NCBI GenBank assembly: GCA_025999215.1
Contig: AP024679.1
Location: 293,645 to 357,644 of the forward strand
Source of the DNA: Candidatus Dojkabacteria bacterium
GTDB lineage: Bacteria; Patescibacteriota; Dojkabacteria; J137
Direction: 5' to 3'
DNA: 64,000 nucleotides
The position numbers were made by a program, and so were the translations under genes. Shown here piece by piece: positions 1,608 to 51,257 of this stretch (position 1 is its first letter; every line of letters starts with the position of its first letter). The notes under the pieces are model-generated. The model was not told the origin of the DNA, did not search any database, and saw nothing but the letters and a program-made list of their open reading frames with translations.

Positions 1608-2064
1608 GGGGATGATGTTCGACAGATGACGATTTATTTTAGTTCAAGCCGAGGTAAATGACAACCTCGTTAAATAAAGGTCATTACCTTCTTATCGAAG
1701 GAAATTGACATAAGCGTCAACAATAATGTTATCGGTGCTGTCCGAAACTTCTGGGCTTTCCTAACAGGAAAGGCAGTTGCGCCAAACTATGCTTTGGCAT
1801 AATTTCGGTACAGCGCTCTTGCTGAATAAAAAGTAGGCAAGCGTTTTCTTGTTGCTTTGACAGGTGAGCATCAAGAAAATGGTCACATAGCCTGTCTGCG
1901 TATCAAGCTCATTGGTTTGTGGTGTTTGATACTAAGAACATCAACAAACCCGGTATTTCCGTTTTGCTTGCTTTTGAGGAATTACCGTATTGAAAGCAAG
2001 CTAAGCTTGTAAATGCTAATTTAAACGTCAATCTGGACACGGATTGCTTCCGTCATCTCCACCA
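1608..2064 (+). ncRNA. ssrA: tmRNA (SsrA), one-piece form
   Basis: ORF-free, GC-richer block. 5' GGGGAUG (1608-1614) pairs with 3' CAUCUCC (2054-2060) including a G3:U70 wobble (alanine identity), followed by ACCA at 2061-2064. tRNA-like 5' UUCGACAG is present. Internal tag frame ...GCG CCA AAC TAT GCT TTG GCA TAA (ends 1801) encodes ...APNYALA*, i.e. a YALAA-type tag. Confidence 0.8.
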
Positions 2065-3742: not shown

Positions 3743-4824
3743 ATGAATAACTTGGATCCAAATCAAGAGATTAAAACTCTGTTTGAAAAAATTAACTCTA
3801 GTAAACTTCCCGCTGATCTCAAAGAAAGAGCTTTTGGGCAACTTGCGCGATTAGAAAAAATGCTTACTACTGGCGAGTATTCTCGCGATTTTGAGCCAAT
3901 TACAGAGTATCTAAACTGGATTTTGAAAATTCCTTGGGAAAATTTTGTTAAAGATAATCTTGATTTAGAAAATGTAAGAGCATCGCTTACTAAAAACCAT
4001 TATGGCTTGGAGCCGGTTAAAAACAGAATTTTAGAATACCTGGCCATAATGCACTTGCGACAAAAAAGATTGAGAAAGTCAAATGTCGGAAAATAAAGAT
4101 AAAATGGTTGCTCAAAGAAGCAGTAGCGAGAGCGCCCCGATTCTTTGTTTTGTGGGTATTCAAGGTGTGGGTAAAACATCTATGGCTAAATCTATTGCTG
4201 AGGCTTTAGGTCGGCCTTTTGTACGAATAGCGCTCGGAGGAATTAACTCTTCAACTGAGTTAAGAGGCATTTCTCGCGGAGAGGTGGGCGCTGAGCCTGG
4301 TCAAATAATTAAAGCTTTGGTTAGAACCCAAGTAATGAATCCGCTGATTTTATTTGATGAAATTGATAAAGTTAATAGTCAAACGGGTTTGCAGAGCTGA
4401 TGTGATGGCATCGCTTCTTGAAATACTTGATCCACAACAGAACGCTAGTTTTGTTGATAGGTATATTGATTACCCTGTAGATCTTTCACAGACTTTTTTT
4501 ATTACTACAGCGAATAATTTGGGAGGGATTAGTGCTGCTTTGCTTGATAGGTTAGAAATTATCAGGTTTGGTAGTTACAGTGATGAAGAAAAAATAGTAA
4601 TAGCCAAAGATTATCTACTTAAAAAAGTGATCAAAAACGCAGGGTTAAGAGAAGATCAGTTGAGGTTTGCGGATGATGTTTGGCCGCTGGTGGTGAGGCC
4701 TCTAGGTTTTGATGCCGGTGTTAGGCAGCTAGAAAGAACGCTGTCTGAGTTGGCAAGAAAGGTGGCTCTTCAAATCGTTCAGGGAGTAACTAGACGGGGT
4801 AGTAATAACCAAGGAAAATTTTAG
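3743..4824 (+). pseudogene. lon: Lon protease remnant: AAA+ module only, split over three frames, lacking the N-terminal LON domain and the C-terminal Ser-Lys protease domain
   Basis: The three track ORFs 3743-4096, 4083-4400 and 4354-4824 align consecutively to Lon: ...HYGLEPVKNRILEYLA / [35 protein letters not shown]...LFDEIDKV / ...SLLEILDPQQNASFVDRYIDYPVDLSQTFFITTANNL...LLDRLEII. Frameshifts are near 4085 and 4390. Translation ends before any protease domain. Confidence 0.75.
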
Positions 4825-4896: not shown

Positions 4897-5562
4897 ATGG
4901 TAAAGACTCTTCATCTAACTTATTCCAAGAAATCTAAAAAAAATATACGTAAGGTTATTGGGCTTGCTTTAATTTTTGTTATTTTATCAACATTTGTGGC
5001 TTCATTTTTATATTTAACGCTGCCTTTTTGGCCAGAAATTAAATATAGAATTTCAAAAAGCGAAATAACAGAACTCGATGTAGAAGTATCGGATGAAACA
5101 GCAGAAAAATTGGGAATAAAGAAAACAAAGAATTATAAAGAAGCACAGATTCTTGATTCAAATTTGTTGATAATTCCAAAAATTGGAGTAAAAGCAAAAA
5201 TTTTAGAACATAGTGATTTATCAATTCTTGATGTTGAAGAGGGTGTTTGGAGAGAACCTTTTACCAATACGCCTGAAGATGAAGGTGGAAACACTGTTAT
5301 AGCAGGCCATAGATTTCAGTATTTACCACCTAACACTTCTACTTTTTATCATTTAGATAAATTAAAGTCTGGTGATAAAATTTTAGTAATTTGGGATAAA
5401 AAAGAATATATTTATGAAGTGCAGGATATTTTTGAAGTGGAGCCAAGTGATACATACATTAGAGATAATTCTGGTGAATCTTTATTAACACTTTATACTT
5501 GCACTCCATTAGGAAGTGAAGCAAGGAGATTGGTTGTGCGTGCTAAATTATTAAACAATTAA
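4897..5562 (+). CDS. Sortase-family transpeptidase
   Basis: N-terminal TM anchor, catalytic His context (VIAGHR), TLYTC active-site Cys motif (TLxTC) and downstream conserved Arg. Confidence 0.75.
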   Translation: MVKTLHLTYSKKSKKNIRKVIGLALIFVILSTFVASFLYLTLPFWPEIKYRISKSEITELDVEVSDETAEKLGIKKTKNYKEAQILDSNLLIIPKIGVKAKILEHSDLSILDVEEGVWREPFTNTPEDEGGNTVIAGHRFQYLPPNTSTFYHLDKLKSGDKILVIWDKKEYIYEVQDIFEVEPSDTYIRDNSGESLLTLYTCTPLGSEARRLVVRAKLLNN

Positions 5563-11083: not shown

Positions 11084-11401
11084 ATGCTAGACATATTCTT
11101 AAAACCTTTTTATTGGTGGTATGCGGTTATTGTGAGAAGTTACTTTATTTATCTTTTTTTAAACTATAGTTTTTACTTAAATAAAACCGACACCATACCA
11201 ATGTTCAAAAATATTTTCGTGCCTTTGTTTGGAAGAAAGGGGATAACTAACAGAATTATTAGCCTATTTTTACGTTTTTGGTGGGTCGTGTTTGGTTTTA
11301 CATTTTCTACAGTTTTGATAATTCCAATGTTTTTGTTTGGAATTTTGTTGTTGATACTGCCATTTTTACCTATTATTCAAACTTATAGAATTGTAACATG
11401 A
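11084..11401 (+). CDS. Small polytopic membrane protein (hypothetical)
   Basis: Hydrophobic 105-aa ORF whose end overlaps the start of the next gene (ATGA). Confidence 0.35.
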   Translation: MLDIFLKPFYWWYAVIVRSYFIYLFLNYSFYLNKTDTIPMFKNIFVPLFGRKGITNRIISLFLRFWWVVFGFTFSTVLIIPMFLFGILLLILPFLPIIQTYRIVT

Positions 11402-13975
11402 ATGAAATGCTTGAAATTACAACGTCAAACAATACAAAAATTATTTTAAACCTTGAAGATTTATTTAAATTTAGAGGTGAGCGAAAAAATCGTGATTATT
11501 TTGATAAAAGGTTAGGTTCTTTGTTGTTTATATTGGGAATTATTTTGTTAGTAATTCCATACTTTTGGCTAATTTATAATAGTCGTTTTTCTTTTAAAGA
11601 ATTATGGAATCCTACTGAACCAGGCCTAATAATTTCAAATATTTCAATTTTTTTGATAATTTATGGATTGTATTTAAAAAGAGATAAAAAAGTTTTTGAT
11701 TCGAGTTTGCACCTTGAAGACCTTTCAGACTTACGAAAAAAAATTAAAAATAATGCTCAAAAAGTCTACGAATTAGAAAATGCCTTTAGTGTAGAGGTTT
11801 TACAAATTTTGGATGAAGTTTATGCCAAACACAAAGACTTTTTTTTAGTAGCGTTGTCTGATTACATGGTAAGTGTCTCAAAAGAAAAAAAACTTTTAGA
11901 GAGTAGGTTGGGCTTAGATTTAAAAAGTTTAAAAAATGCTTTATTAGAACACTTTAAAACTAAAACTACTAGTTTTGAAGTGATGGCCGCAGAATTTTTT
12001 AGAGATTTATTAGATAAAGCTAATTTTATTGAAAGTGATTACATAGATGAAAAAATTCTTTTGGCAACTCTAATAGAAAAATATTGGAAGGAAGTTTTAA
12101 GAGAATTCGAAATAACAGAATTAGATATTAAAGGTTTTATTTTGTGGCTTAAAAATGAGCAGAAAAATTTAAATTATCAAAAAAAATGGAAGCGATTGTC
12201 AAAATTAAAACCCAAAGGCCCAATTAATAGAGCTTACACCTCTCGTGCAACCCCAATGCTTGATGAGTTTGGGTACAACTTAACTGCTCGAATTATTGAT
12301 AGAGGCTTTAGTATTTCTATAGGCAGAGAAAATGAAATTAATACTCTTTTACAGACTTTGGAGCAAGAATCAAGCGCTGCAGCGATAATTATTGGTGAGC
12401 CAGGTGTAGGAAAAACTCACTTTTTAGAGTATCTAGCAACAAGAATGATAATTGAAGATGTTCCGAAAGAGCTTAGAGATTCAAGGCTTGTGGTTGTAGA
12501 TTTAAATAAGGTATTTGCTAAAGCGGGATCAATTGATCACTTTAAGCAGATTTTACAACAAATTTTAGAGGAGGTTGTGGAATCTAAAAGTTTAATTATT
12601 GCTTTTGAAGATTTTTCACAAATTCTCTCAATCCGAACTGAAGGAAGAATGGAAATTATTAATTTGGTTATGAATATGATTACTAGATATAATATTAAAA
12701 CCATAACCACCACAACTCTTTCAGATTATTACAAGTATGTTAAACCTATAAAAACATTGGCTGCTCTTTTTACGCCAATAAACCTAAACGAGCCAAGTAA
12801 AGAAGTTACTCTACAGATTTTATTAGATGAAGTTAAGCAACTTGAGAAAAAACATAATTTAACAATTCAAGTATCAGCCGTTAAGAGAATCGTGGAGTTT
12901 GGCAACGAATTTGATTTTGAAAGAGTAATGCCTGATAAGGGTAACAGGCTACTTGAGGAGGCAGTGATAAGGGCAGAACAAAATAATTTTAAAGTGATTG
13001 ATGAAGATTTAATTGATGAGCTTTTGTCTGAAAAAATCGGAGTTAATGTTGGAGAGATACGACAAGATGAAGCGATTAAGCTTAGAAACCTTGAAGAAGA
13101 AATGCACAAAAGAGTTGTTGGACAAGAAAATGCGATATCAGCAGTTGCTAGTGCGCTTAGAAGAGCTAGAGCAGGGATTATTAGTTCAAATCGTCCCAGT
13201 TGCTTCATTTTTATTCTTTGGTCCCACAGGAGTTGGAAAAACTGAAGTTGCTAAAACACTAGCAAGTACTTACTTTGGAGATGAAAAAAATATGATTAGG
13301 TTAGACATGTCTGAATATCAAGAGGAAAAAAATCTGGATAGGCTAATTGGGTATGCTGATGATTCAGGAGAATTTATTGGTGGATATCTTGTTGATTCTG
13401 TTAGGCAAAAACCTTTTTCGTTAGTCTTGTTGGATGAGATTGAAAAAGCAAATTCAAAAGTTTTAGATTTATTTTTGCAAGTTTTAGATGAAGGTTTTAT
13501 AACTGATGGGTTAGGTAGAAAAATTGATTTTACAAACACGATTATTATTGCTACCAGCAATGTTGCTTCAAAGGAAATAACTGTAATGTTTGAGCAAGGG
13601 CAGAAATATATTGATGTTTTAAATAAAATAACTCCACTTTTGAAAAATTATTTTAGGGTTGAGTTTATTAATCGTTTTGATAAAGTCATTATGTTTAGAC
13701 CGTTGAATTTTGTAGATATTGAGCAAATAGCGAATTTAATTCTGATGAAACTGAGAGATAGGTTACTTGCTCAAGGAATAGATTTAAAATGGGATAAAAA
13801 TACTCTTTTTAAATTAGCTGAAAAAGGTTATAGTAGAGTGTACGGTGCGCGAGAGCTAAGAAGAGTTATACAAGAAACTATTGAAGATGATATTGCAACT
13901 GCTATAATTGAGAAAAAGTTGAAAAGCGGTAATACAGCTGTTTTAAGCGGTTTAGATATTATTTACATTACTTAA
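11398..13975 (+). pseudogene. Divergent, membrane-anchored Clp/Hsp100-like double-AAA+ ATPase (ClpA-like, no M-domain, Clp N-domain replaced by 2 TM helices) with one frameshift between D1 and D2
   Basis: D1 Walker A GEPGVGKTH with degenerate Walker B (IIAFEDF). Linker ...MHKRVVGQENAISAVASALRRARAGIISSNRP. D2 continues in the overlapping frame (track ORF 13013-13975): SFLFFGPTGVGKTEVAK...LVLLDEIEKA...sensor-2 GARELRR. Frame switch near 13195-13205 at a CCC run. N-terminus has two predicted TM helices (residues ~40-95). Confidence 0.7.
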
Positions 13976-14335
13976 ATGAAAAAAATTATTTTTATAACAA
14001 TTTTTTACACAAGCGTTTTTTTAGATAGGGTTAATGCGCAAGAATTTTCTTACAGTATTCCTAGCCCTACAAGGTATCAAAGTTTGGAGGATGTAGTTTC
14101 TGCATTAGGAAATTTAATTCAGCCAATATTTATATTAACCTTTTTGGCAATGGTTTTGTATGGGGCATGGGTTAGGCTTACATCGCAAGGAAATGCTGAC
14201 AAATTAGCAACAAGTAGAAAAATAATCATTGCTGCAATAGTGGGTTTTACCTTGGCGGTTTTAGCTCCATCAATAGTAAATATTGTAACAGGTTTACTTG
14301 GAGTAACTGGTTTAGAAACTTTACAAACAAATTAA
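13976..14335 (+). CDS. Secreted small two-TM protein, VirB2/TrbC-like pilin family (paralog 1)
   Basis: Signal peptide ending VNA-QE, then a TM - charged loop - TM hairpin (ILTFLAMVLYGAWVRLTSQGNADKLATSRKIIIAAIVGFTLAVLAP). Topology and size match conjugative-pilin-type proteins. Homology is not proven. Confidence 0.45.
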   Translation: MKKIIFITIFYTSVFLDRVNAQEFSYSIPSPTRYQSLEDVVSALGNLIQPIFILTFLAMVLYGAWVRLTSQGNADKLATSRKIIIAAIVGFTLAVLAPSIVNIVTGLLGVTGLETLQTN

Positions 14336-14338
14336 AAT

Positions 14339-14950
14339 ATGAAGGCTTTATTGTTTGTTTTAAATATATTTTTTTTAATCTCAATAATTTTTGGATCTGT
14401 AGTTTATGCACAAGGTTATCCAGGACCTAATACTAATGATCCAAACTATAGTCGTATAGGGTCCGCTCCTGAAAATTGTAGTGACAACTACGTGGTAGAT
14501 TTTAGTTGTCAAAGAGCAAAAATTTTAGATCCTTCAGTTTTTTGTTATGAAAACAAATGCCCAGATGTTCCTTCTTATCAAGATGCTCAGCAAGGTAGCG
14601 ATGATACTTGGTTAAGTTTAGATGCTTTTGGGGCTAGATTAAATATTGATTCTGGAAAAGAGATTGCCGCACTAATTAATATTTCCATATCTACTTTTTT
14701 GGGAATTATATCTATTTATGCATTGGTTAGAGGTGTGTATGTTGCTGGCTTTAAAATAGCAGGTAATACAGAACAAGAAAAGCTTACAGAAGCAAGGAAT
14801 GAAATTGTGCAACTAGTTTTGGCGTTTGTAATTGCTTGGTCGGCAATTTTTGTATTGCAGTTTGTATTCTCTTTGCTTGGATTAGGTAGTATTAATAACT
14901 ATATTTTATTTGGAGATAACCAACAAGGAACTCAAATAGTTATAAATTAA
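14339..14950 (+). CDS. VirB2/TrbC-like pilin-family paralog 2 with Cys-rich ectodomain
   Basis: Signal peptide (VYA-QG), an ectodomain of about 100 aa with 6 Cys, then the TM-loop-TM module with the shared 'EQEK' loop signature (KIAGNTEQEKLTEARNEI). Confidence 0.45.
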   Translation: MKALLFVLNIFFLISIIFGSVVYAQGYPGPNTNDPNYSRIGSAPENCSDNYVVDFSCQRAKILDPSVFCYENKCPDVPSYQDAQQGSDDTWLSLDAFGARLNIDSGKEIAALINISISTFLGIISIYALVRGVYVAGFKIAGNTEQEKLTEARNEIVQLVLAFVIAWSAIFVLQFVFSLLGLGSINNYILFGDNQQGTQIVIN

Positions 14951-14953
14951 ATT

Positions 14954-15499
14954 ATGAAAACAAAAACTAAAATCTTATTGTTTTTAATTATGTTTTTTGT
15001 AATACCGCCATTAGTGAGCGCGCAGGATGGATCAGGCTCTTTGGAATTCAATACAGGTAAGGCTGGTGAAGGCTTAGACCCAATTACGATTTCTTTTTTC
15101 CCTCAAGTTACTCTTATTGATGCAGAGTATGCAAGCTTTTTAAGTTGGTTAAGTTTTATAGCTAACATAGCTATATTAGTTTTGGTGCTTTTTTGGCTTT
15201 ATAAAATTTTTTTTGCAGGGATAGAAGCTATGAGAGGTGGTGGTGAAGCTGAAAAATTGGTTGAATCTTGGAAAAAAGTTAGAGCGGTTTTGCTTGGAGT
15301 AACTATTTCTTTTTTGATACCAATAATACTTTCTATTGTAGGGACTTTTTTGGGTGTTGGTGCAATTTGGGAGTGGCCATTAGCTTTTAGAGAATGTAAA
15401 GATGATAGGTATGATTATTATTTTCAAGCTTTACAGGAGTGGAGTCAAACTACAAACGTTTCAGATCCTAAAGCTGAAGTTGATAGTATTTGTTTTTAA
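14954..15499 (+). CDS. VirB2/TrbC-like pilin-family paralog 3
   Basis: Signal peptide (VSA-QD) plus TM - IEAMRGGGEAEKLVESWKK - TM. Confidence 0.45.
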   Translation: MKTKTKILLFLIMFFVIPPLVSAQDGSGSLEFNTGKAGEGLDPITISFFPQVTLIDAEYASFLSWLSFIANIAILVLVLFWLYKIFFAGIEAMRGGGEAEKLVESWKKVRAVLLGVTISFLIPIILSIVGTFLGVGAIWEWPLAFRECKDDRYDYYFQALQEWSQTTNVSDPKAEVDSICF

Positions 15500-15507
15500 T
15501 AATTTAA

Positions 15508-15945
15508 ATGTATAGATTTTTTATTTTTGCAGCAATTATTTTATTGAGTTTTGGTTTTTTAAACATAGTTAAGGCTCAGGGCTTTTGTGATTTTTATCCA
15601 TGTGGTAATAATGATCCAAGTATTGATGACAGCACAGAAGATGATCTTTCAGTAACTTTTCGAACAGGTTTTCGATTAATAACATCGTTAATATTTACAG
15701 TTTTCATAGCATATGGTATATTTTTGATAATTAAGGCTACTTATATTATTATTAGAAGTGAAGGAGTTTCAGAAAAATACGAAAAAGGGTATAAGTTGAT
15801 AAAGGGGGTTTATGTTGGTGTAATTATGATATTTATAGGTTTGATAGGTTTATTGATTGTTGCTGTTTTTTTTGGTGGGGTAAGTATATTTAATGTTGAG
15901 CTAACTGAGCCAGAAGGGGTTGATACACCGTTATTTGAATTTTAG
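15508..15945 (+). CDS. VirB2/TrbC-like pilin-family paralog 4
   Basis: Signal peptide (VKA-QG), short Cys-containing ectodomain, then TM - IRSEGVSEKYEKGYK - TM. Confidence 0.45.
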   Translation: MYRFFIFAAIILLSFGFLNIVKAQGFCDFYPCGNNDPSIDDSTEDDLSVTFRTGFRLITSLIFTVFIAYGIFLIIKATYIIIRSEGVSEKYEKGYKLIKGVYVGVIMIFIGLIGLLIVAVFFGGVSIFNVELTEPEGVDTPLFEF

Positions 15946-15971
15946 ACTTTTATTATTTATTAGTTGTCAAA

Positions 15972-16512
15972 TTGAAAAAAATATCTAATTTTACATTAGG
16001 GGTATTTGTTTTTTTGATTATTGCGTTTTTTTTAGTAACTGTTAATGTTGATGCACAGGGTAGTTCCCAAGATCTTCCTGATGATACGAATGCTACAACT
16101 ACTAATGATGAAAGTTTGGTTTGTCAAGTACTTCCATTTTTAAAGAATATAGCATTTGTTAATAAGGCTATATATGAGGGTAGTGAATAAGGTGCAGAAA
16201 ATGCCGTTAACACCATAGTAGGCTTGGTTCAACTAGGAGGAACTTTGGTGTTTGTAGGTATAATAGGAATATCAATTTATGTGATCATAAAGGCGGCAAT
16301 AAAGTATATAAGAAGCGAAGGAGAAGGAGAAGGTGGTTGAAGCGCAAAAGGCAATAAAGCAGGTGTTTGCAGGTTTAGCGGCGTTATTTGTAGGGTTGGT
16401 AGGTTTAGTAATAATACTTGCATTAATAAATACTGATGGTACTTTGGGTGGTTCTACTGAGCAGAATAGTGATTTAATAAAACAGCTAGAACAATTAAAT
16501 TTAGGGGAGTAG
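15972..16512 (+). pseudogene. VirB2/TrbC-like pilin-family paralog 5, inactivated. This is the first, diverged unit of the 647-bp tandem repeat.
   Basis: In-frame TAA at 16188-16190 where the intact copies have AAA. A 2-nt deletion near 16320 (GAAGGAGAA-GGAGAAGG versus GAAGGAGAACAGGAGAAGG) shifts the frame into TGA. From 16191 onward the nucleotide sequence is near-identical to 16838-17159. Confidence 0.7.
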
Positions 16513-16572
16513 TTTGTTAATTTAGAATTTAGATATTTAAAAATAAATTTTTTATCGGATTTACAAAGAATT

Positions 16573-16602
16573 TTGACATTTTTTGAGCTGTTTGTGTATA
16601 AT
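16573..16602 (+). promoter_or_regulatory. Consensus sigma-70-type promoter inside the repeat unit
   Basis: TTGACA - 18 nt - TATAAT, about 35 nt upstream of the 16638 ATG. An identical copy sits at 17220-17249 upstream of 17285. Confidence 0.55.
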
Positions 16603-16637
16603 TAATTGAACAAATTTATTAATTAGTTTAATTTAAA

Positions 16638-17159
16638 ATGAAAAAAATTATTAACAAGATTCACTCAACACTCATTATTTTAATGTTTGTTTTTTTATTA
16701 CATCCACTTCTTTTTTCAGTCTTAGTTGTTCGGGCTAGCGGTCAAAGTGATTTTTCTAATATTATATGTCAAGTACTTCCTTTTTTGAACAATATAGTAT
16801 TCGTTAAGGATGCTATATGTAAGGGTAATGAAAAAGGTGCAGAAAATGCCGTTAATACCATAGTAGGCTTGGTTCAACTAGGAGGAACTTTGGTGTTTGT
16901 AGGTATAATAGGAATATCAATTTATGTGATCATAAAGGCGGCAATAAAGTATATAAGAAGCGAAGGAGAACAGGAGAAGGTGGTTGAAGCGCAAAAGGCA
17001 ATAAAGCAGGTGTTTGCAGGTTTGGCGGCGTTATTTGTAGGGTTGGTAGGTTTAGTAATAATACTTGCATTAATAAATACTGATGGTACTTTGGGTGGTT
17101 CTACTGAGCAGAATAGTGATTTAATAAAACAGCTAGAACAATTAAATTTAGGGGAGTAG
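16638..17159 (+). CDS. VirB2/TrbC-like pilin-family paralog 6 (repeat copy A)
   Basis: Signal peptide (VRA-SG), Cys-containing ectodomain, then TM - IRSEGEQEKVVEAQKAIKQ - TM. 173 aa. Confidence 0.5.
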   Translation: MKKIINKIHSTLIILMFVFLLHPLLFSVLVVRASGQSDFSNIICQVLPFLNNIVFVKDAICKGNEKGAENAVNTIVGLVQLGGTLVFVGIIGISIYVIIKAAIKYIRSEGEQEKVVEAQKAIKQVFAGLAALFVGLVGLVIILALINTDGTLGGSTEQNSDLIKQLEQLNLGE

Positions 17160-17284
17160 TTTGTTAATTTAGAATTTAGATATTTAAAAATAAATTTTTT
17201 ATCGGATTTACAAAGAATTTTGACATTTTTTGAGCTGTTTGTGTATAATTAATTGAACAAATTTATTAATTAGTTTAATTTAAA

Positions 17285-17806
17285 ATGAAAAAAATTATTA
17301 ACAAGATTCACTCAACACTCATTATTTTAATGTTTGTTTTTTTATTACATCCACTTCTTTTTTCAGTCTTAGTTGTTCGGGCTAGCGGTCAAAGTGATTT
17401 TTCTAATATTATATGTCAAGTACTTCCTTTTTTGAACAATATAGTATTCGTTAAGGATGCTATATGTAAGGGTAATGAAAAAGGTGCAGAAAATGCCGTT
17501 AATACCATAGTAGGCTTGGTTCAACTAGGAGGAACTTTGGTGTTTGTAGGTATAATAGGAATATCAATTTATGTGATCATAAAGGCGGCAATAAAGTATA
17601 TAAGAAGCGAAGGAGAACAGGAGAAGGTGGTTGAAGCGCAAAAGGCAATAAAGCAGGTGTTTGCAGGTTTAGCGGCGTTATTTGTAGGGTTGGTAGGTTT
17701 AGTAATAATACTTGCATTAATAAATACTGATGGTACTTTGGGTGGTTCTACTGAACAGAATGATCAATTACAAAGATTAAGGGATTTAGATTTGGGAGAA
17801 CAATAA
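17285..17806 (+). CDS. VirB2/TrbC-like pilin-family paralog 7 (repeat copy B; identical to copy A except the C-terminal 15 aa)
   Basis: Nucleotide-identical to 16638-17115. C-terminus is NDQLQRLRDLDLGEQ versus NSDLIKQLEQLNLGE in copy A. Confidence 0.5.
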   Translation: MKKIINKIHSTLIILMFVFLLHPLLFSVLVVRASGQSDFSNIICQVLPFLNNIVFVKDAICKGNEKGAENAVNTIVGLVQLGGTLVFVGIIGISIYVIIKAAIKYIRSEGEQEKVVEAQKAIKQVFAGLAALFVGLVGLVIILALINTDGTLGGSTEQNDQLQRLRDLDLGEQ

Positions 17807-18010
17807 AGTTAGTTTTAGTAGGGAAGATAATTTTAAAATAGCTAAATTAATTTATTTCTTTTTTATTAGCCTAATTGGGTGTTGGGGATTTTTTGTTTAA
17901 ATTAGATGTAATTTTATTATTTAATTCTAGATTCAATCAGTGTTCTATCGTCTGAAACAATTACTTCAAATTTACTTGATAAAAGTTTCATTTCTTGGGA
18001 TACTTTTGGT

Positions 18011-18470
18011 ATGAAAAATTTACTTGTAGTGTTGCTTGTTTTTTTTGGGCTTGCTTTCTTTACACTCAGTGTAAATGCTCAAATGCAAGACATTCCCTTT
18101 TCTGCAAATGATTCATCGTGCAGTAGTTATCAGTGCTTCAATGGTGAGGATCCTGTTTATAATGAAAGTAAAAAGTTATGTATGTGTGGAGATGAGCCTG
18201 CATACTTCAAGCCACCCACACTTCAGCAAGTTGAGATATGGTTTGTTAGGATAGTTTATATCGTTTGGGCTTTTGTTGGGTCACTTTCTTTTGTAATGCT
18301 AGTTTATTTGGGATATCAATATATGCTCAAAGGAGGGAACAAGTGACCAAGCCTTGGTTGATTTAAGAAGGAGGATTATAAACTATATAATTGGGGTGGT
18401 ATTAGTGTTTTTGGCTGTTCCCGATATTAACGACTTTCTTTCGGTTTTTAAATATAAATGGAGATGTTAA
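18011..18470 (+). pseudogene. VirB2/TrbC-like pilin-family paralog 8 requiring a +1 frameshift (probably pseudogene)
   Basis: Signal peptide (VNA-QM), Cys-rich ectodomain and TM1, then ...LKGGNK-TGA at 18344. The +1 frame continues DQALVDLRRRIINYIIGVVLVFLAVPDI..., which recreates the charged loop plus TM2 seen in all paralogs. Confidence 0.55.
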
Positions 18471-25183: not shown

Positions 25184-25637
25184 ATGAAAGTACTTTCAAC
25201 TAACAAACAAGCAAAACGAAATTATGAGTTTATAGAAAAGTTTGAAGCAGGAATAGTTTTAGAAGGCTGGGAGGTAAAATCAATCAAAGCAGGGTAGTGT
25301 ATCTATAGATGGTTCTTATGCTTATGTCAAAGAAAATGAAGTATTTGTTAAGAAGGTGAAAGTATATCCGTTAATGTCCGCGGGTAAAGTTCCTGAGGCT
25401 CAAACGGAACGCGATAGGAAGTTGCTACTTAAGAAAAATGAAATCAACAAAATTAAAACTTTACTGAAAAATATAGGTTATACTTTAGTTGTCAGTCAGT
25501 TGTTCCTTGCTAATTCGGGTTTTATCAAGGTTGAAGTGGTGGTTTCTAAAGGGCTCAAAAAATATGAAAAAAGAGAACGGAAAAAGGAGAAAGATTTAAA
25601 AAGAAAATTAGAAGCTGATAGAAAATATTATGGATAA
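25184..25637 (+). pseudogene. smpB: SsrA-binding protein SmpB, split by a 1-nt frameshift
   Basis: 25184-25297 encodes [40 protein letters not shown]. The +1 frame continues [66 protein letters not shown]... (track ORF 25356-25637). Both halves align to SmpB. The break is at a GGG run near 25292-25295. Confidence 0.75.
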
Positions 25638-25857
25638 TAACATACAAATCACAAAAGAATTGTTAGCTAAATACAGTTTTACCTTTTATGCATACGACGA
25701 AAAAGGAGAACCGCTGTTTACTGCTCCCAATGGGCAAATAGTCGGGTTTAATCTAGTCAGAAATTTTATAATTGAGCAAGAAAACAAGTTGAAACAAAGT
25801 CAACTGGTAGGAAGTGGCGGTGGTATTGAAAGCATGCCCAAGTCTGCCTACAGTTAA
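25630..25857 (+). CDS. Hypothetical small protein
   Basis: 75-aa ORF overlapping the smpB stop (ATGGATAA). No motif. Confidence 0.3.
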   Translation: MDNNIQITKELLAKYSFTFYAYDEKGEPLFTAPNGQIVGFNLVRNFIIEQENKLKQSQLVGSGGGIESMPKSAYS

Positions 25858-26019
25858 TCAAAACATTGATCAAAATACCAAAGAGGAAGGTCTGATTCAA
25901 ATTTTGAAAATAACTTAGAAAGAGCATCGGAAAGACCAGAAAAAGAGGAAAATCAAGAAAATGAAAATGATAAAAATCAAAATCAAAATCAAACGAAAAT
26001 TTTTACTGTAACACCCAAA

Positions 26020-26217
26020 ATGGCAGCGGCCCCAAAAAGTGTACCTTTTGGTGATGGGTTTACACCTTCAAAGTTTGATCCAAGCTCATTGCAAGATACA
26101 AAAAGGTTTGTGCAACAAAATAAGAAGCAAGGGAATAGTAACAGCAATAAATGGTTGGCGGTTTTGTTTGAAAAATTTGTGAAAGAATACGAGGATCAAT
26201 TAAACAATAATAAATAA
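26020..26217 (+). CDS. Hypothetical small basic protein
   Basis: 65-aa ORF immediately upstream of the large ATPase. Confidence 0.3.
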   Translation: MAAAPKSVPFGDGFTPSKFDPSSLQDTKRFVQQNKKQGNSNSNKWLAVLFEKFVKEYEDQLNNNK

Positions 26218-26218
26218 G

Positions 26219-28669
26219 TTGTATATGTTAGTTAAGATGGATATAATCAACACTGCTATTATAATTTTATATTTTATAATAGGAATACTTCTTGGAAGTA
26301 TTGTAGCTTACTTTTTGTTAAAATACGCGCTTAAGAAAACACATGAAGCAGTTTTGAGAAGAAAACATAGAAATTTGGTTTTCTTTGAAGTTAAATTACC
26401 TGCAAACAACGAGTTTGAGATAAAAGTGGCAGAGCAAATGTTTGCTGGTTTGATGAGTATTTCACCAAAAATTAAAGGAATAAAAAAATATTTTAATGCT
26501 AAGGCTTTCGTAAGTTTTGAGGTGGTAGCATTTAAAGATAATATTAAGTTTTATGTAGCTTGTCCAAAAAGAATAGCGGGAATAGTCGATAAGCAAATTA
26601 ATGGAACTTATACATCTGCTGATATTAAGCTGGTTAAAGAATATAATTTATTTCCTGACGATTCAAAAGTGGCTTACGCGGCTTTGAAACTAGATAAGCA
26701 TCATAGAATACCCATCAGAACTTATGAGGATTTGCCTGTAGATACATTGTCAACTTTGCTAGATGCGTTTAGTAAAATTCAGTTTAATGAAGCAGCGGCA
26801 TTTCAAGTTGTAATTACTCCAGCTGGTTCTGAATGGCGTAATCAATCTAAAAAATATATTAAAAAGCTTAGAGAGGTACCAGAAGGAGAAGATGGAAAAA
26901 CTAAGAAAAAACCTGAGCTTGATGATGATACTATTCAACTTATTGACCAAAAAGCATCGAAACCGGGTTTTTATGTAGATGTTAGGTTGGTTGCAGTTAG
27001 TGAAGATAAAGAGTCAGCCGAAATGCATTTGAGTAATATGATGAGTTCAATAGATCACTATGTAAAAGAAGGTGGAAACAGATTTAAGAAATTAGAAAAG
27101 AAAAAAATTAAAAATATAGTTGATGATTTCATCTATAGAATACCTAGAGAAACTATGATATTAAACACGGAAGAACTAGCTACTCTTTATCACTTCCCAA
27201 ACAAAAATATAACTACTCCTCATGTAAATTGGCTTTTATCTAAAAAAGCGCCAGCTCCGGATTTTGTAGAGGCTGAATTTAAAGAAGATTATATGTATAT
27301 TGGGAGAAATACTTTTAGGGGAAAAGAACGGGAGATTTTTATCAAACCAGAGGATAGGCTTAGGCATATGTACATAATCGGTCAAACTGGTACCGGAAAA
27401 TCAGGTTTTATGGTAGGTATGATGACAAGAGATATTAAGCTTGGACATGGTTGTGGTTTTATTGACCCTCATGGAAGTGATGCAGAAAAAATACTTCAAC
27501 AGGTTCCTCCTGATCGTGCTGATGATGTAGTATTTTTTGATCCATCAGATATGGAAAGGCCATTCGGTTTGAACATGCTTGAATATGAATCAGAAGGGCA
27601 GAAAGCAAAAGCTTTAGATGAATTATTGTCTATTTTTGATACTTTGTTTGATTTGAGGCAAACAGGAGGACCAATATTTTATCAATATTTTCGTTATGGA
27701 GTATTACTTTTATTATCAGATCCAGACTCAGGTGCGACAGTGTTAGAAGTTCCAAAGATCTTATCTGATGATGCTTATAGAAAGTACAAGCTATCTAGGT
27801 GTCCAGATAAAGAGATTGTTGCATTTTGGGAAAAACAAGCTGAAGCAGCGGGAGGAGAAGCCTCTCTAAAAAACTTGGTTCCTTATATTACTTCCAAATT
27901 ATCTCCATTTGTTACCAACCCTTATGTGCGACCAATTGTTGCACAACAAAAATCAACACTAGATTTTAAAGATATTATGGATAGTAAAAAAATTTTGATA
28001 GCCAAATTATCAAAAGGAAAGATTGGAGATTACAATGCTTATCTTTTAGGAATGATTTTAATTGGAAAATTGCTTGTTACTGCGTTGAGTAGAGAAGAAA
28101 AATCGGAAAGTGAGAGAGTTCCTTTTTACTTGTACATTGATGAGTTTCAAAATTTTTTGACGGAATCTATTCAAACAATTTTGTCGGAAGCTAGAAAGTA
28201 TAAATTGTCTCTCACTATTGCACACCAGTACATTAGTCAGTTGGTTAAAAATAACGATACTAGAATTAGAGATTCAATTTTTGGTAATGTTGGTAATAAG
28301 GCTGTTTTTAGAGTTGGTACCGAAGATGCAAAATTTTTGGAACATGAGTTTGAAGGTGTGTTTGATAAAAATGATTTAATTAAGGTTGAAAATTTCACTT
28401 TTTATTTGAAGATGTTATCTGGTGGACAACCCACACCACCTTTTTCAGTAAGATCTTTTTATGGTGACTCAAAATACGATATGATAGGTAAACCTAATCC
28501 TGAGTTAGCTCAGATAATCAAAGAAATATCGAGGCTAAAATACGGAAAGCCTAGAGAGCTGGTAGAGAAAGAAATAGAAATGAGGACAGAAGAGGCTCAT
28601 AAAAAGGGTGAAGAAATAATTAAGAAAAACAAATCTTCTTCAGGCTTCGGCGGTTTCGGTGGATTTTGA
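26219..28669 (+). CDS. VirD4/TrwB/TraD-like type IV coupling-protein-family ATPase with N-terminal TM anchor and 370-aa N-extension
   Basis: Walker A YIIGQTGTGKSGF. FIDPHGSD (compare TrwB IVDPNGD). Walker B LYIDEFQNF. Motif LTIAHQYISQL (compare T4CP/FtsK-HerA QSxSQL). One TM at residues 8-30. C-terminus is GFGGFGGF. Confidence 0.55.
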   Translation: MYMLVKMDIINTAIIILYFIIGILLGSIVAYFLLKYALKKTHEAVLRRKHRNLVFFEVKLPANNEFEIKVAEQMFAGLMSISPKIKGIKKYFNAKAFVSFEVVAFKDNIKFYVACPKRIAGIVDKQINGTYTSADIKLVKEYNLFPDDSKVAYAALKLDKHHRIPIRTYEDLPVDTLSTLLDAFSKIQFNEAAAFQVVITPAGSEWRNQSKKYIKKLREVPEGEDGKTKKKPELDDDTIQLIDQKASKPGFYVDVRLVAVSEDKESAEMHLSNMMSSIDHYVKEGGNRFKKLEKKKIKNIVDDFIYRIPRETMILNTEELATLYHFPNKNITTPHVNWLLSKKAPAPDFVEAEFKEDYMYIGRNTFRGKEREIFIKPEDRLRHMYIIGQTGTGKSGFMVGMMTRDIKLGHGCGFIDPHGSDAEKILQQVPPDRADDVVFFDPSDMERPFGLNMLEYESEGQKAKALDELLSIFDTLFDLRQTGGPIFYQYFRYGVLLLLSDPDSGATVLEVPKILSDDAYRKYKLSRCPDKEIVAFWEKQAEAAGGEASLKNLVPYITSKLSPFVTNPYVRPIVAQQKSTLDFKDIMDSKKILIAKLSKGKIGDYNAYLLGMILIGKLLVTALSREEKSESERVPFYLYIDEFQNFLTESIQTILSEARKYKLSLTIAHQYISQLVKNNDTRIRDSIFGNVGNKAVFRVGTEDAKFLEHEFEGVFDKNDLIKVENFTFYLKMLSGGQPTPPFSVRSFYGDSKYDMIGKPNPELAQIIKEISRLKYGKPRELVEKEIEMRTEEAHKKGEEIIKKNKSSSGFGGFGGF

Positions 28670-28716: not shown

Positions 28717-28793
28717 GCTCCTGTAGCTCAGTTGGTTAGAGCACGGTTCTTATAAAGCCGGGGTCAGTGGTTCGAGTCCACTCAGGAGTACCA
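28717..28793 (+). tRNA. tRNA-Ile (anticodon UAU), CCA encoded
   Basis: Cloverleaf: acceptor GCUCCUG/CAGGAGU; anticodon stem CGGUU/AGCCG with loop CUUAUAA (UAU); T-arm AGUGG-UUCGAGU-CCACU; 3' ACCA. Confidence 0.75.
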
Positions 28794-38204: not shown

Positions 38205-39700
<1,496 letters not shown>

Positions 39701-43467: not shown

Positions 43468-46400
43468 TTGAATGTAATGAAAATTGTAATTATAGAAGAA
43501 AACATTTCGATAAGAAGGTTTTTAAAGGCATTTCTAAACAAAAATTTTAAAAATGTCCAAGTTTATACTTCTGAAAATGGAGTGGAAGGGTTGGGACTTG
43601 TTTATGTTGTTAGGCCAGATTTGATACTAGTTGATACTACTTTACCAAAATATTCAGGACGAGAAATAGTTGAATTTTTGAGTTCAAATGATAGTTTTAA
43701 AAACGGTAAAACTAAAGTAATTATAATGAATGATGGAAGTAGTGTTTCCAAAACACTTGCGAATTTTAAAAACTACGAAAAAAAAGATAAAAAATTTTTG
43801 AAAAAGATAGGAAGTGAAATAATTAACTTTCAAAAAGATGTTATACATTCAGAAAGTATAAATCCAGGATTTTTAAATAGCTTAGGGATAAGGCTAGCCA
43901 ATAAGTCTGATTTGATGTGGAAAAAATTTTTAGAAAGTAGATTTTTAAAAGTCTGGTTTGGCTTGGGATGGCTATATTATCAGATTTTATTAAGCTTAGT
44001 TTTAACAATACATTTTCTGCTGGTAAGAGAAATAAAAGATTCTAATATTCAGCAAAATAAAATTGATTCGAAAAAAATAGCAGTCAAAGCCGCGCCTACT
44101 TTGGCGGGTTTATTTGCAACTTTTTTGGTTTTGTTTTCGCAAATTTTTTTATTCGTGCTTGGAGGTGTAGTGATTCTCAATACTAGGGTTAATAGTATTT
44201 TTGCAACAGGTGAAAGTGTAGAAGAAATTTTTTATTCAACGCTTACACAATCAAGATTTTGGTACCAAGCAGACTTTGTTGAATTTACTGCATCCGGTGT
44301 TCAGCTTAAATCTCAATTTACACCACCAGATGTGGGCATAGATCCACCACCAGGCGGTGGTATAGAAACACAAAGCATACCATCATCATACCCTGAATCG
44401 TATCCGCAAGAAAATGTTTTAGGAGTATCAAAAAGTACTTCACGTTATAGTACTAATCCAGCTCATATTACTTTACTACAACCAATTGAATACACTGATC
44501 TGATAAATTTTGAAGAATTTGCTAATAAACCTTCTAATACAACTATTACTTATCAATTAAGTCCGGATGGGACAAATTGGTATTATTTTGAAAGTGTTGA
44601 TACCGGTTGGGTGCTTACAACGGCTGGTTTTTGGAGTTCTAATACAGCTCAAGAAGTTCAACAAAATTTAGAATTATATGAATCGCTTTTTGATTCGGGA
44701 AGTTTATACATTACAGCTTTTCTGAAAACAGACAATCCTTCTTTTACACCAATTTTACAAAAGATAAATATTACTTTGAGTAATGAAATAGTATCGCAAA
44801 CTCCTGATCCGGGGAGTGGTGGAGGTGGTATAAATGAAATAACTCTTGATATATTGGACTTCAATACTCTAGAGCCGCAAATATTTACTGCAAGTTATTA
44901 CAATGGTAACAAAATAGTAACAGGAAAAATATTAGGGAGAGATAGATTATCAAAACTTATTTATAGAGCTCCCTCAGAAGTTTTATCAAGATATGAAGCT
45001 GTAATAACATATGAAGATGGTACATTGATTGGTACGACTGATCTGTATCTCAATTCAAGAGATGAGATAGCTTTTAAATTAGTGACAAACGGAGAGCCAG
45101 GTGGCTTTATAGTTGTGCAAATACGACCTAAAGTTGGAGTTCCTCTCCCACCGGGAGTTGTACTTGACGAATCCCCTCGATCAAAAAGAGTTTTAAATTC
45201 TACTTTTACTGTTGATTCTACTAGCGATGAGCCAGATGCTCTTCTAGATGGCTTGTGTGAGACAGCTCTGGGAGAATGTACTTTGAGAGCAGCTATACAA
45301 GAAGCAAACAACACGCCAGGTTTTGATATTATAAATTTTGCTATACCTGTTACCGATTCAGGGTATAGAGACTATGATAGCCCTGGAACTCCTGGAAGTG
45401 GAGATTCTTTGAATGGAGATGATTATTGGGTTATTAGGCCGCAAGTAAATTATCCTACAATTACTGAAGCAATTAATTTGAATGTAGGTTCTCAAAGAAC
45501 AAACATTAGTGATACTAATAACTTAGGACCAGAGATTGAGATCACAGGAATTGATATTATGGGTAGTCCAGGTTTGGTTTTTGATCATGGTTCATCCGGA
45601 ACATCTGAAATCTCTGAAGTTGTGGTAAATGGTTTTGTGAATGCAGTGGTTTTACATTCTTCAACCAATATGAAATCTACTTATTTGGGAACTGATGTGA
45701 GAGGTCAAAATCAAGTGGTTTCTTCAAAATCTCTGGTAATTTCTCCAAAAATATTTTCAAACATTACAATTGGAAGTACAGCTCAATTAGAAGATAGGAA
45801 TGTAATATCACAAGCTGAGATTAATTTTGTTTGGGGTACTGGAGGAAATATAACTTTGGTGAATAATTATTTTGGTCTTAATTCCTTAGGTAGCGCGAGT
45901 ATATTATCACCTTTGGATACACCTCTTGAGATTAGTAGTAGTGGTGCTAGTGTAGATTCTCTTATAAAAATTGGAGAAAATTTAACGAATGGAAGAAATT
46001 ACTTTGCATCAGGAATTAATGTAACGGCTGGTGGTTACGTTGCTGTTGAGATAAAAAATAATTTATTTGGTGTAGATACAAATTTTAATCTAATTAACCA
46101 CAACGCTAAAATGAATTATTCTTTGGATAGTTCTCTAAATAGTTATGTTTATGATCTTTTGGTTGAGAATAATTTATTTTTACAACCAGCAGGGTCATAT
46201 TTAATATTTAATTCTAACAATACTTCAAAAGTTAGATTTTATCAGAATACCTTAGCTACTGATTCAATAAGTCCAACTCATTATGCCATGGATATATTGG
46301 CAACTTTTACTCCAAATTTAACTGAAAATCAAATAGAGGTAGTAGATAATTTTTTTGGTGGCGATGGAATTAATCCAGATCCATTTTTTGGCGTAGTTAC

Positions 46401-49400
46401 TGAGTCAGCATCTAATGAGTTGCTTAAAGTTCAAAATGTGAACATTTTGGTTGAAGATAATATCTTCAAATCCAGCTCTACGCCTGATATAACAAATTTT
46501 TTTGCAGATACGATTGCGTATTTTAATAATAACATTGTTGAGGGTGGTGGTGCCGGCTTAAAGTTTTCTTCTGATTATAGTTTAGAAGCTTACGGAAATG
46601 AATTTAAATTTGGAAAATATGGAATCAAGCTAGATTTGGGTACTGATGTAGCTAATCAAACTGTTGATATTAAAGGAAATTTATTCTACTTAAATGATTA
46701 TGGGCTTTTTGCTTATCTTGATGATTCAATCACCTCTCTTGATCCTGATATTAAAAAACTTACCCTGGGGGGAAGTTTACCTATGAGTGGATCCAAATGT
46801 GAAGCAAGCGAAAAAAATTGTTTTGAACAAAACAGAATGTGGGGAGTAGTTATTTTAGATTCAGTACCTGAAAATGAAAATAATGTGTATTATCAAAATA
46901 CTTTTGTGAATAACGGAATAAACAATGATATTGTTGATGGGGTAGGTGAAAATTATGCTCAAGCTTGGAGGGGTGGTTTTGAGTTGTTTAATAAAGATCA
47001 AAGAGTAGCTATCACGGGAGACTTTGTAAGTAAGTATATATTCACGATAGAGGGAAAAAGAAGTCCATTAACAGCTCAGAGTAAAGTTTGTCCTTTTGGG
47101 GCTACGGAGTGTCCTGCGAGTGGTGATACAACTGGAGTTTTGGGAGAATCAACCATTCTTGATTATGGTTCAACTGGATCTAACATGACTTATCTAAACT
47201 TAATTGAATATTACTATGACAATGTAGGTAACAAAGTAGATGTATCAGAGTTTGTTATTGATTCACCTCATCTAGCTCAAAGGGTATTTAGTTTTGATGG
47301 AGATGCGTCTAACGATACAGCAAATGTAACTCAAGGTGCTGGAGTTAGGAATATAAATGGATTTAATTATGAAGATAGGGGGATGGTTTGGACCAATAAT
47401 CCTACCGCAACGAGAGATACTGTTAATCATGTTTACGCGCGATTTCAGTTAGCAGAAGTAGAGTTTGTGGATGCTAACCCGATATGGCATAATAACCAGT
47501 GGTGGATAGTAGTGGATTCAACTTTGGATACCGATAATGTTTCTTCTGAAGGTTATGATGATGGTGGTGGAGCTTATTCTGGCGGTGGTTTGAGCGGAAG
47601 CGATGGTGTGGCTGACGGTAAAACAACGCTGAAAGAAGCTTTGTTTGTTGCCAATAACTTGAATCCTAGTGATGTTAAAAATATTGTATTTTGCATACCA
47701 AATGGTAGTGGTGGAAGCACTGATGGGCTAGGAGGATTGCTTCCTTTTCCATGTGGTATTGGTGCGGCCGATCCTAATTATAACAATCCAATTCCTAGCA
47801 AATGGAGAATCGAATATCAGTCCGATGTGCCTTCTTTGCCTTATGTAATTGACTCTAACTTTCACATTAATAACGATAATATTAACTTGATTGCAAATCA
47901 AGCGTACAATTGGATAAACCCAGTAGCTTACCCTGATCCTGCAGCAAAACCAAGAATTGTCATAGACTTTCTTTCAAATTATAGATTTGAGATTGGAACC
48001 AGCAATGCGGTATCAAATATACAGATAAAAGGATTGGAGATTACTCGCAATCCTGGTGCGGCATATAATATTTTTGGTAAAGCAGGAACCAGCAATGTAA
48101 TTATAGGTGGAAATCAAGCGTTAGATAGAAATGTAATTTACAATGGTGATAGAAATATATATTTTCCTGGTCCTGGTAGTAGTAATATTAGTATTTTAGG
48201 TAATTTTTTAGGGGTGAAAGATGATGGAGTAACTGATCAAACTAATTCTAATATATTTAATTTGGTTTTTGGAAATTCTTATGTAAGCGATATAGTGGTT
48301 GGTTCACCAGGATGGGGAAGGAATATAATCAGCGGTGCAGGTAGAGGGGTTTCTCTGATTAATTGTTCTGATGCGGTAATTCAAAATAACTATATAGGAG
48401 TAGGTTATGATGGTGAAACTGTTATTTCAGAACCACATATTGGAATTTTATTGGATAGAGTAGAGAATGTTCTTGTGGGTGGTGATATAGAAACAGAAGG
48501 TAATGTTATTGCTGGAAACAAGCCTGGTATTTTTGTAAGGGGATTAAGAGTACCAGATATTACTAATACAAAATTTACTGCAAAAATTGAAGGTAATAGG
48601 ATTGGTTACACTGCTAGCAACAATCCAGCATCAATACTAGGTGATGGCATCGTTGTTGGTTCTCAGGAAAATATACTACCTCATGAACAACTTGGAAAAG
48701 TTATACTTGGCGGAGAATATTTTAATTTAAGAAACCTAATTTATGCTAGCCAGTCTAACATTAGATATGATTCTGGACAATTGATTGTAAATCATAATTG
48801 TTTAGGAACTAATTATGATTGTACTGAATTCTTTCCAGACCCTGACCCTTCTTTTCCAGCCGTAAAAACAACAAATATTACAGTAACATATGGAGTGAGT
48901 GTAAATTCTTACAAAACTAATGATCAATTTACGAGCTTGGATATAGATTACACAAAATTTAAGATTAATAGTAATTACGATTTAGTATATTTGGCATTCA
49001 CAGGCAACAATGATTCTACTCCTTTTAATTTTAGATTAAATGAAATAAAAAACTCGTTAACCTCTTTTTATTTACCATATGCAATAGAAGATTCAGATTC
49101 TCTCAACTGGCCACCAAATTACGATGTTTCGGCTTTAAGCTCATTACCTGATGATGATGATGTAGATGAAGGTATTAATAATTTACAAAATTTTCCTGAA
49201 ATATTAAAAGCTATATATTTAGGTGGTGGCTACTATCAAGTAGAAGGTGTAATTGATGGTAATTCTTCAGAGGCGCCTTTTGAAGTTGAAGTTTGTAAAA
49301 GTTTTGAAACTTCGGTTTTGACTATTAATAATTATGAGCACGGACTAGGGCAATGTGAAGTATTTTTAGGTAATACTTTTACACCTAATGTTGCCGGAGT

Positions 49401-51195: not shown

Positions 51196-51257
51196 AATAA
51201 AATTGAGTTGATTTTTTTGTTGTGGTAAATTATTGGGTAATGATAGAATGAAATTAT

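Follow-up and report, generated by a model that had tools for sequence, protein, structure and literature searches.

The frameshift that splits smpB in a Dojkabacteria metagenome-assembled genome is probably a consensus indel

We found that the smpB gene in the Dojkabacteria metagenome-assembled genome AP024679 is split by a one-base frameshift, and we consider it very probable that this break is an indel artefact of the assembly consensus. The window, i.e., the whole 64-kb stretch of this contig that was analyzed, contains at least seven further one-base indels in conserved genes, spread over four genes besides smpB, as revealed by a frame-by-frame survey. The organism itself most likely has smpB as a single intact gene of 150 codons, the partner of an intact tmRNA gene; the low-coverage HiFi/metaFlye consensus would have over-called a short run at positions 25292–25294, with GG read as GGG, and the reads, or the true DNA, would be expected to carry GG. 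An artefact is favored because the events belong to a single error class with an excess of insertions, fall at short runs and are clustered; because the affected genes are otherwise intact; because the assembly has low coverage with no polishing described; and because the gene of the nearest relative is intact. A preliminary description of this DNA had named assembly error first in its list of interpretations, and it is this option that is favored here, while the others on that list gained no positive support.

The smpB frame opens with the ATG at 25184 on the plus strand. Its 5′ segment, comprising codons 1–37 in frame 0 (25184–25294, plus strand), matches positions 2–34 of the Pfam SmpB profile (E = 1e-11) and is closed by a frame-0 stop, TAG, that the shift creates at 25295–25297 on the same strand. 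The 3′ segment, comprising codons 38–150 plus the stop in the +1 frame (25296–25637, plus strand), runs to the TAA at 25635–25637 with a protein ending in ...KYYG, and matches profile positions 61–140 (E = 6e-19). The coordinates previously reported for the split, with 37 codons followed by the TAG and the body of the protein in the +1 frame, were thus confirmed, and both pieces match Pfam. An uninterrupted frame of ~145–160 codons, as expected of SmpB, is absent as assembled, since the frame breaks after codon 37. When the two segments are joined by a one-base skip (GCA GGG t AGT), the resulting 150-aa protein matches PF01668 as one stretch over profile positions 2–139 of 143 (143.8 bits, E = 4e-42). 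As each piece matches the SmpB profile separately and the joined protein does so in a single stretch, the split is not a chance pattern of ORFs. Further, in a 20-sequence alignment, the joined SmpB is free of gaps across the junction against 19 homologues and retains all 21 of the 21 invariant columns. In the deposited annotation, an 87-aa smpB fragment is listed as ‘hypothetical protein KatS3mg085_319’ (100% identical).

Single-base edits place the error within a permissive window of 20 nt (25278–25297), in which the only runs are GGG at 25292–25294 and AAA at 25286–25288. Deleting one G of the GGG yields the 150-aa SmpB ORF, and deleting one A of the AAA likewise does so. Taken together with the alignment to the nearest relative, these edits mark the GGG (plus strand) as the likeliest place of the extra base; the earlier assignment of the break to this run therefore holds as the best choice of site, although the AAA run restores the ORF equally well. 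The direction of the change, however, had been stated the wrong way round: an extra G had been proposed to restore a 150-aa ORF, whereas it is one G fewer that does so, and adding a G at this run results in a 41-aa product ending in ...KAGVVYL before a stop. The GGG triplet occurs once as an ordinary in-frame codon within smpB itself. We also considered reassignment of TAG as a sense codon and rejected it, as frame 0 past the smpB TAG is not SmpB-like and meets a TGA 14 codons later.

Among the best 120 of 804 SmpB homologues, the closest (63% identity, 150 aa) is intact and is encoded on a 303-kb JGI contig (locus L001), where the gene order is the same as in the window: a 787-aa protein, smpB, a 189-aa protein and a TraG-like ATPase. 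The preliminary description had singled out the same locus in relatives as the place to look, and there the smpB of the nearest relative is indeed intact, with 150 codons and GG at the junction. At the junction the window reads GCA GGG TAG against TCA GGT AAA in the relative (GCA-GGG-TAG versus TCA-GG-TAA); the relative has GG where the window has GGG, so that the window carries one extra base. The full-length homologues in the same set of 120 of 804 range from 140 to 161 aa, and the only fragment among them is that of the window itself. Among the matches listed, the junction is crossed in one segment at 160 of 160 loci (80 genomic and 80 metagenomic), with the 80 genomic loci coming from other phyla, none of them Dojkabacteria, and none of the metagenomic matches listed being closer than 47% identity.

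The tmRNA gene (ssrA), whose presence had been claimed at the outset, was recovered at 1608–2064 on the plus strand as a full-length match to Rfam RF00023, scoring 85.1 bits where the gathering threshold is 47; ARAGORN makes no call for this tmRNA. It has the G3-U pair, an encoded CCA end and the tRNA-like domain. The putative tag reading frame, VNNNVIGAVRNFWAFLTGKAVAPNYALA followed by TAA (1716–1802, plus strand), was obtained by frame reading from a putative resume codon; it is open and ends in ...APNYALA-TAA. That the tRNA-like domain is present and the tag frame open implies that trans-translation, a process requiring SmpB, is under selection. Accordingly, the earlier suggestion that trans-translation is compromised in this organism or that smpB is in the course of being lost found no positive support, with both the invariant residues of SmpB and the tag frame being intact. 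The tmRNA does show some oddities of its own: its T-loop is 2 nt shorter than in the Rfam model (GGACACGGA-UUGCU-UCCGU), and the putative tag is unusually long, with ~28 codons ending in NYALA. These could be a peculiarity of the lineage or a further indel error.

The other broken genes in the window display the same kind of lesion. The Lon-like AAA+ gene (3743 to ~4861, plus strand) carries three +1 indels, recognized by Pfam matches and repair: the first at GG 4088–4089 or the adjacent A run, within a break spanning 4074–4096; the second at ACGGGTTT (GGG 4385–4387); and the third at GACGGGGTAG (GGGG 4796–4799). Its fragments match the Pfam AAA profile at positions 1–73, and then at 81–127 together with Lon_lid, while three one-base deletions yield a 371-aa protein with AAA 1–127 contiguous. 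This gene lacks a protease domain past Lon_lid, and the next gene (4897–5562) codes for a sortase. The ClpB-like gene (11398–13975, plus strand), likewise recognized by Pfam and repair, has a +1 indel at CCC 13195–13197, between NRP and VASFLFFGPTGVGKT; the break at CGT CCC AGT falls exactly between ...RRARAGIISSNRP and VASFLFFGPTGVGKTE, and removal of one C gives an 858-aa protein with AAA_2 1–165 contiguous, in addition to ClpB_D2-small.

The gene immediately downstream of smpB (25630–26217, plus strand) has two events, a +1 indel at CCC 25837–25839 and a −1 indel at GG 25889–25890, which were identified through the homologue of the relative and by repair. As assembled, it has two frame-0 stops; taking one C off ATG CCC AAG and adding one G at GAAGGT results in a 195-aa protein that aligns end to end, including the repaired stretch, with the 189-aa homologue at L001 (50% identity, E = 3e-60). 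The gene overlaps the smpB stop, and its product is a conserved protein of ~190 aa with no Pfam match, whose place beside smpB is kept at L001 (6446–7015). The order of smpB, this neighbor and the ATPase is also kept there.

The fifth gene codes for a small membrane, pilin-like protein (18011–18470, plus strand) with a +1 indel at GGG 18335–18337, identified by repair and by comparison to its paralogues. As assembled, it meets a stop two codons past GGA GGG AAC; with one G removed, the C-terminus regains a hydrophobic helix like that of the paralogues. It belongs to a run of small signal-peptide or membrane protein genes, at 13976–18470 and 26219–28669, that share a common C-terminal hydrophobic helix. 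We interpret these as pilin- or VirB2-like proteins; no Pfam match was found for them. Near them is a gene for a TraG/VirD4-like coupling ATPase (TraG-D_C, T4SS-DNA_transf). Across all five indel-broken genes, including smpB, there are no in-frame stops beyond those made by the shifts, no larger deletions and no loss of a conserved motif.

The eight events share a distinct signature. First, seven of the eight are one-base insertions, the exception being the −1 event in the gene downstream of smpB. Second, a G/C run of at least three is present in six of the seven ORF-defined junction windows. The chance of such a run per window is 14–34% in the six narrow windows and 85% in the 233-nt ClpB-like window, and the enrichment is significant both overall (p = 0.003) and with the ClpB-like window left out (p = 0.0034). 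As the junction windows also hold A/T runs of at least three, the exact inserted base is unprovable; alignment to homologues sets the ClpB-like, membrane-protein and smpB-downstream junctions beside a G/C run. Third, six of the events form two patches of three, at 4088–4796 and 25292–25889, each of no more than 710 nt, a degree of clustering that has a probability of ~5e-5 under uniform scatter in simulation. Fourth, the window has 91 A/T runs of at least 7 nt, none of which is required for any break. Comparison of the sequence around the GGG/CCC sites for a common motif, such as one for methylation, found the flanks alike in nothing beyond the run itself.

In the rRNA genes, a search with universally conserved motifs, which cover little of the sequence, found no indels in the 16S motifs; the 23S motifs, also covering little sequence, gave two nominal insertions and three non-matches, probably because the motifs used as queries were imprecise. 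The 3′ end of the 16S rRNA (39687–39699) is GGATTATCTCCTT, with an anti-Shine-Dalgarno core of TCTCC, whereas the usual end, GGATCACCTCCTT, has the core CCTCC. Besides the tRNA-Ile with anticodon GAT in the rRNA operon, the window codes for a tRNA-Ile with anticodon TAT (UAU) at 28717–28793, which suggests that AUA may be decoded through a UAU anticodon instead of a CAU tRNA carrying the lysidine modification. The rRNA operon is immediately followed by two very long intact ORFs of 2575 aa and 1355 aa (43468–55325), which together make up 11.8 kb without a frame break.

The origin of the assembly is compatible with this signature. According to the methods passages and Table S3 of the paper describing it, AP024679 (KatS3mg085) is a circular Dojkabacteria MAG of 862,240 bp from Katase hot spring sediment, assembled with metaFlye 2.8.3 from PacBio Sequel II HiFi reads above Q20, with 10.8x coverage, 852 CDS and 31.4% GC (PMC9671151). 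No short-read polishing is described in the methods passages, and the word ‘polish’ is absent from that paper (PMC9671151). Within the same assembly, the MAG with the lowest coverage has fewer bp per CDS than that with the highest coverage in 18 of 22 same-clade groups (binomial p = 0.002), a trend in agreement with consensus errors but confounded by the fragmentation of contigs. Exact-protein look-ups with the smpB fragment of the annotation and the 788-aa protein upstream of it matched no second assembly of the organism. Extrapolating from the 64-kb window, AP024679 probably carries about one indel per 7–8 kb. Given this probable density, claims of gene loss or pseudogenes in this genome, and in similar low-coverage HiFi/metaFlye MAGs too, need confirmation at the level of the reads.

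The two patches of indels hint at read support that may be thin or of low quality in these places, though clustering inside one gene would also be expected of a dead gene gathering hits. A consensus error of this form has its own unusual aspects. Long homopolymers are where errors in a HiFi consensus would normally be expected, and a bias toward G/C runs of 2–4 nt in a sequence of 34% GC is not textbook behavior. The rate in the window, ~14 indels per 100 kb, also seems high for a HiFi assembly. Our literature search found no paper documenting a short G/C-run insertion bias for ccs or for Flye on HiFi data.

The alternative that survives best, which we nevertheless regard as unlikely, is that the extra base is real: recent frameshifts would have been fixed in the population, SmpB would be inactive or truncated, and trans-translation would be lost or on its way out while the tmRNA still looks intact. 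The frameshift does stand in a deposited finished genome; moreover, the genomes of Patescibacteria are reduced, and loss or breakage of smpB does occur in genomes of that kind. Single smpB frameshifts were found in 13 complete genomes by Hudson et al. in 2014, and one of these, that of Buchnera BCc, was discussed as real by its original authors (PMC4131195). [quoted passage not shown] The concentration of three indels in the Lon-like gene and three in smpB and its neighbor gives both the look of decaying loci. However, none of the broken genes has acquired nonsense codons or larger deletions, their invariant residues are kept, and the tag frame of the tmRNA is intact. If eight indels per 64 kb were extrapolated to the 862-kb genome as real mutations, roughly a tenth or more of its genes would be broken, including, in the window alone, those for a ClpB-like protein, a Lon-like AAA+ protein and SmpB. 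The spectrum of events, with its preponderance of insertions, mostly at G/C runs, and its sparing of the 91 long A/T runs, is likewise not what is expected of natural slippage in AT-rich DNA.

Some true pseudogenes may nonetheless exist in the window. In the segment 15972–17806, a gene for a 173-aa secreted or membrane protein is present in three tandem copies, two of which (16638–17159 and 17285–17806) are near-identical. In the third (15972–16512), the N-terminus is diverged, and there are an AAA-to-TAA nonsense codon and a deletion of 2 nt in an otherwise identical stretch, lesions that are not of the homopolymer type; this copy could be a true pseudogene or an artefact of repeat collapse. 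Were the smpB frameshift itself real, it would represent a bacterium that is not an obligate endosymbiont and has a broken SmpB yet keeps its tmRNA, a situation that bears on the dispensability of trans-translation.

Far less probable is the proposal that the extra base is real and decoded, with a +1 shift at GGG-UAG, in which the P-site tRNA-Gly would re-pair from GGG to GGU while the UAG is slowly read, so that full-length SmpB is made by a programmed or tolerated shift; in a broader form, the seven +1 sites would all be rescued by +1 shifting or quadruplet reading at Gly or Pro codons. Formally, the smpB site does look like one for a +1 shift, with a slippery codon in the P site and a stop next in frame (GGG UAG U), but it is unconserved, there being no shift in the nearest relative or in any other SmpB sampled. 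The only Shine-Dalgarno-like element, GGAGGT at 25270–25275, ends 16 nt upstream of the GGG, compared to a spacing of 3 nt in prfB; it is also present in the unshifted relative at L001, where it encodes the conserved WEV motif. Thus, the programmed frameshift that the preliminary description had raised as an option is left without positive support, there being neither conservation of the site in relatives nor a stimulator at a useful distance.

The general version, in which the insertions at G/C runs are real and the ribosome passes them by shifting +1 or decoding quadruplets at Gly (GGN) and Pro (CCC) codons, making smpB, the clpB-like and the lon-like genes routinely dependent on recoding, strikes us as even more remote. 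Each of the seven +1 junctions can be positioned immediately behind a Gly (GGN) or Pro (CCC) codon, the codon families known from the classical frameshift suppressors sufD and sufA/B. However, such placement is expected in any case, since in AT-rich coding DNA most GG and CC dinucleotides occur within these codons. At the other six +1 sites, the next codons are ordinary sense codons (AGT, AAG, AAC and others), with a stop 2–16 codons later, and the gene downstream of smpB requires a −1 event as well, which lies beyond a model of decoded +1 shifts. Further, across the intact ORFs of the window (11,538 codons), GGG and CCC occur in frame as normal codons (70 and 17 uses, respectively), and we rejected a general recoding of these two codons on this ground. 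To our knowledge, no gene-wide recoding of this kind has been described in bacteria.

Least credible of all is a genuinely split protein, in which the 37-aa piece and a C-terminal piece initiated at GTG 25356 or ATG 25374 would reassemble into a working SmpB: both pieces do keep SmpB-like sequence, but a functional split is unlikely because the +1 frame from 25278 to 25356 has no start codon and codons 38–57 (SVSIDGSYAYVKENEVFVKK), which form part of the β-barrel core, would go unmade; moreover, no split form is seen among the best 120 of 804 homologues, and we know of no split SmpB.

Returning to the consensus error as the preferred reading, the case can be set against four kinds of known systems. 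The closest parallel is with the genomes with a single smpB frameshift compiled by Hudson, Lau and Williams in 2014, which also combine a well-conserved smpB, one frameshift and the presence of ssrA (PMC4131195). In contrast to those, the present case comes from a long-read MAG with 10.8x coverage and has seven further indels of like kind alongside it in 64 kb, which makes the argument for error much stronger than it would be for an isolated smpB frameshift. The endosymbiont cases, namely the frameshifted smpB of Buchnera aphidicola BCc and the pseudogenes or truncated versions in Hodgkinia and Tremblaya, are similar in featuring a disrupted smpB in a bacterium with a small genome. However, these are obligate endosymbionts with signs of decay, such as multiple stops, truncation into the β-barrel or loss of ssrA (PMC4131195), whereas here all the invariant residues of SmpB are kept and the ssrA tag frame is open. 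The +1 frameshift of prfB (CUU UGA C) is alike in form, with a slippery P-site codon, an in-frame stop and a product that continues in the +1 frame; the smpB site differs in being unconserved, in having no Shine-Dalgarno element spaced at 3 nt and in having no autoregulatory logic that would tie UAG and RF1 to SmpB. Finally, the homopolymer-length errors of long-read assemblies, as detected by IDEEL-type tests (PMC9262707, PMC13087279), show the same pattern of adjacent ORFs matching consecutive parts of a family, in a manner dependent on coverage; here, the runs are short G/C runs of 2–4 nt and not long A/T runs, and the reads are HiFi and not nanopore. The smpB break, which is conspicuous because the gene is nearly universal, is therefore best filed as a familiar gene-fragmenting long-read indel and not as a new system or a real feature of the organism.
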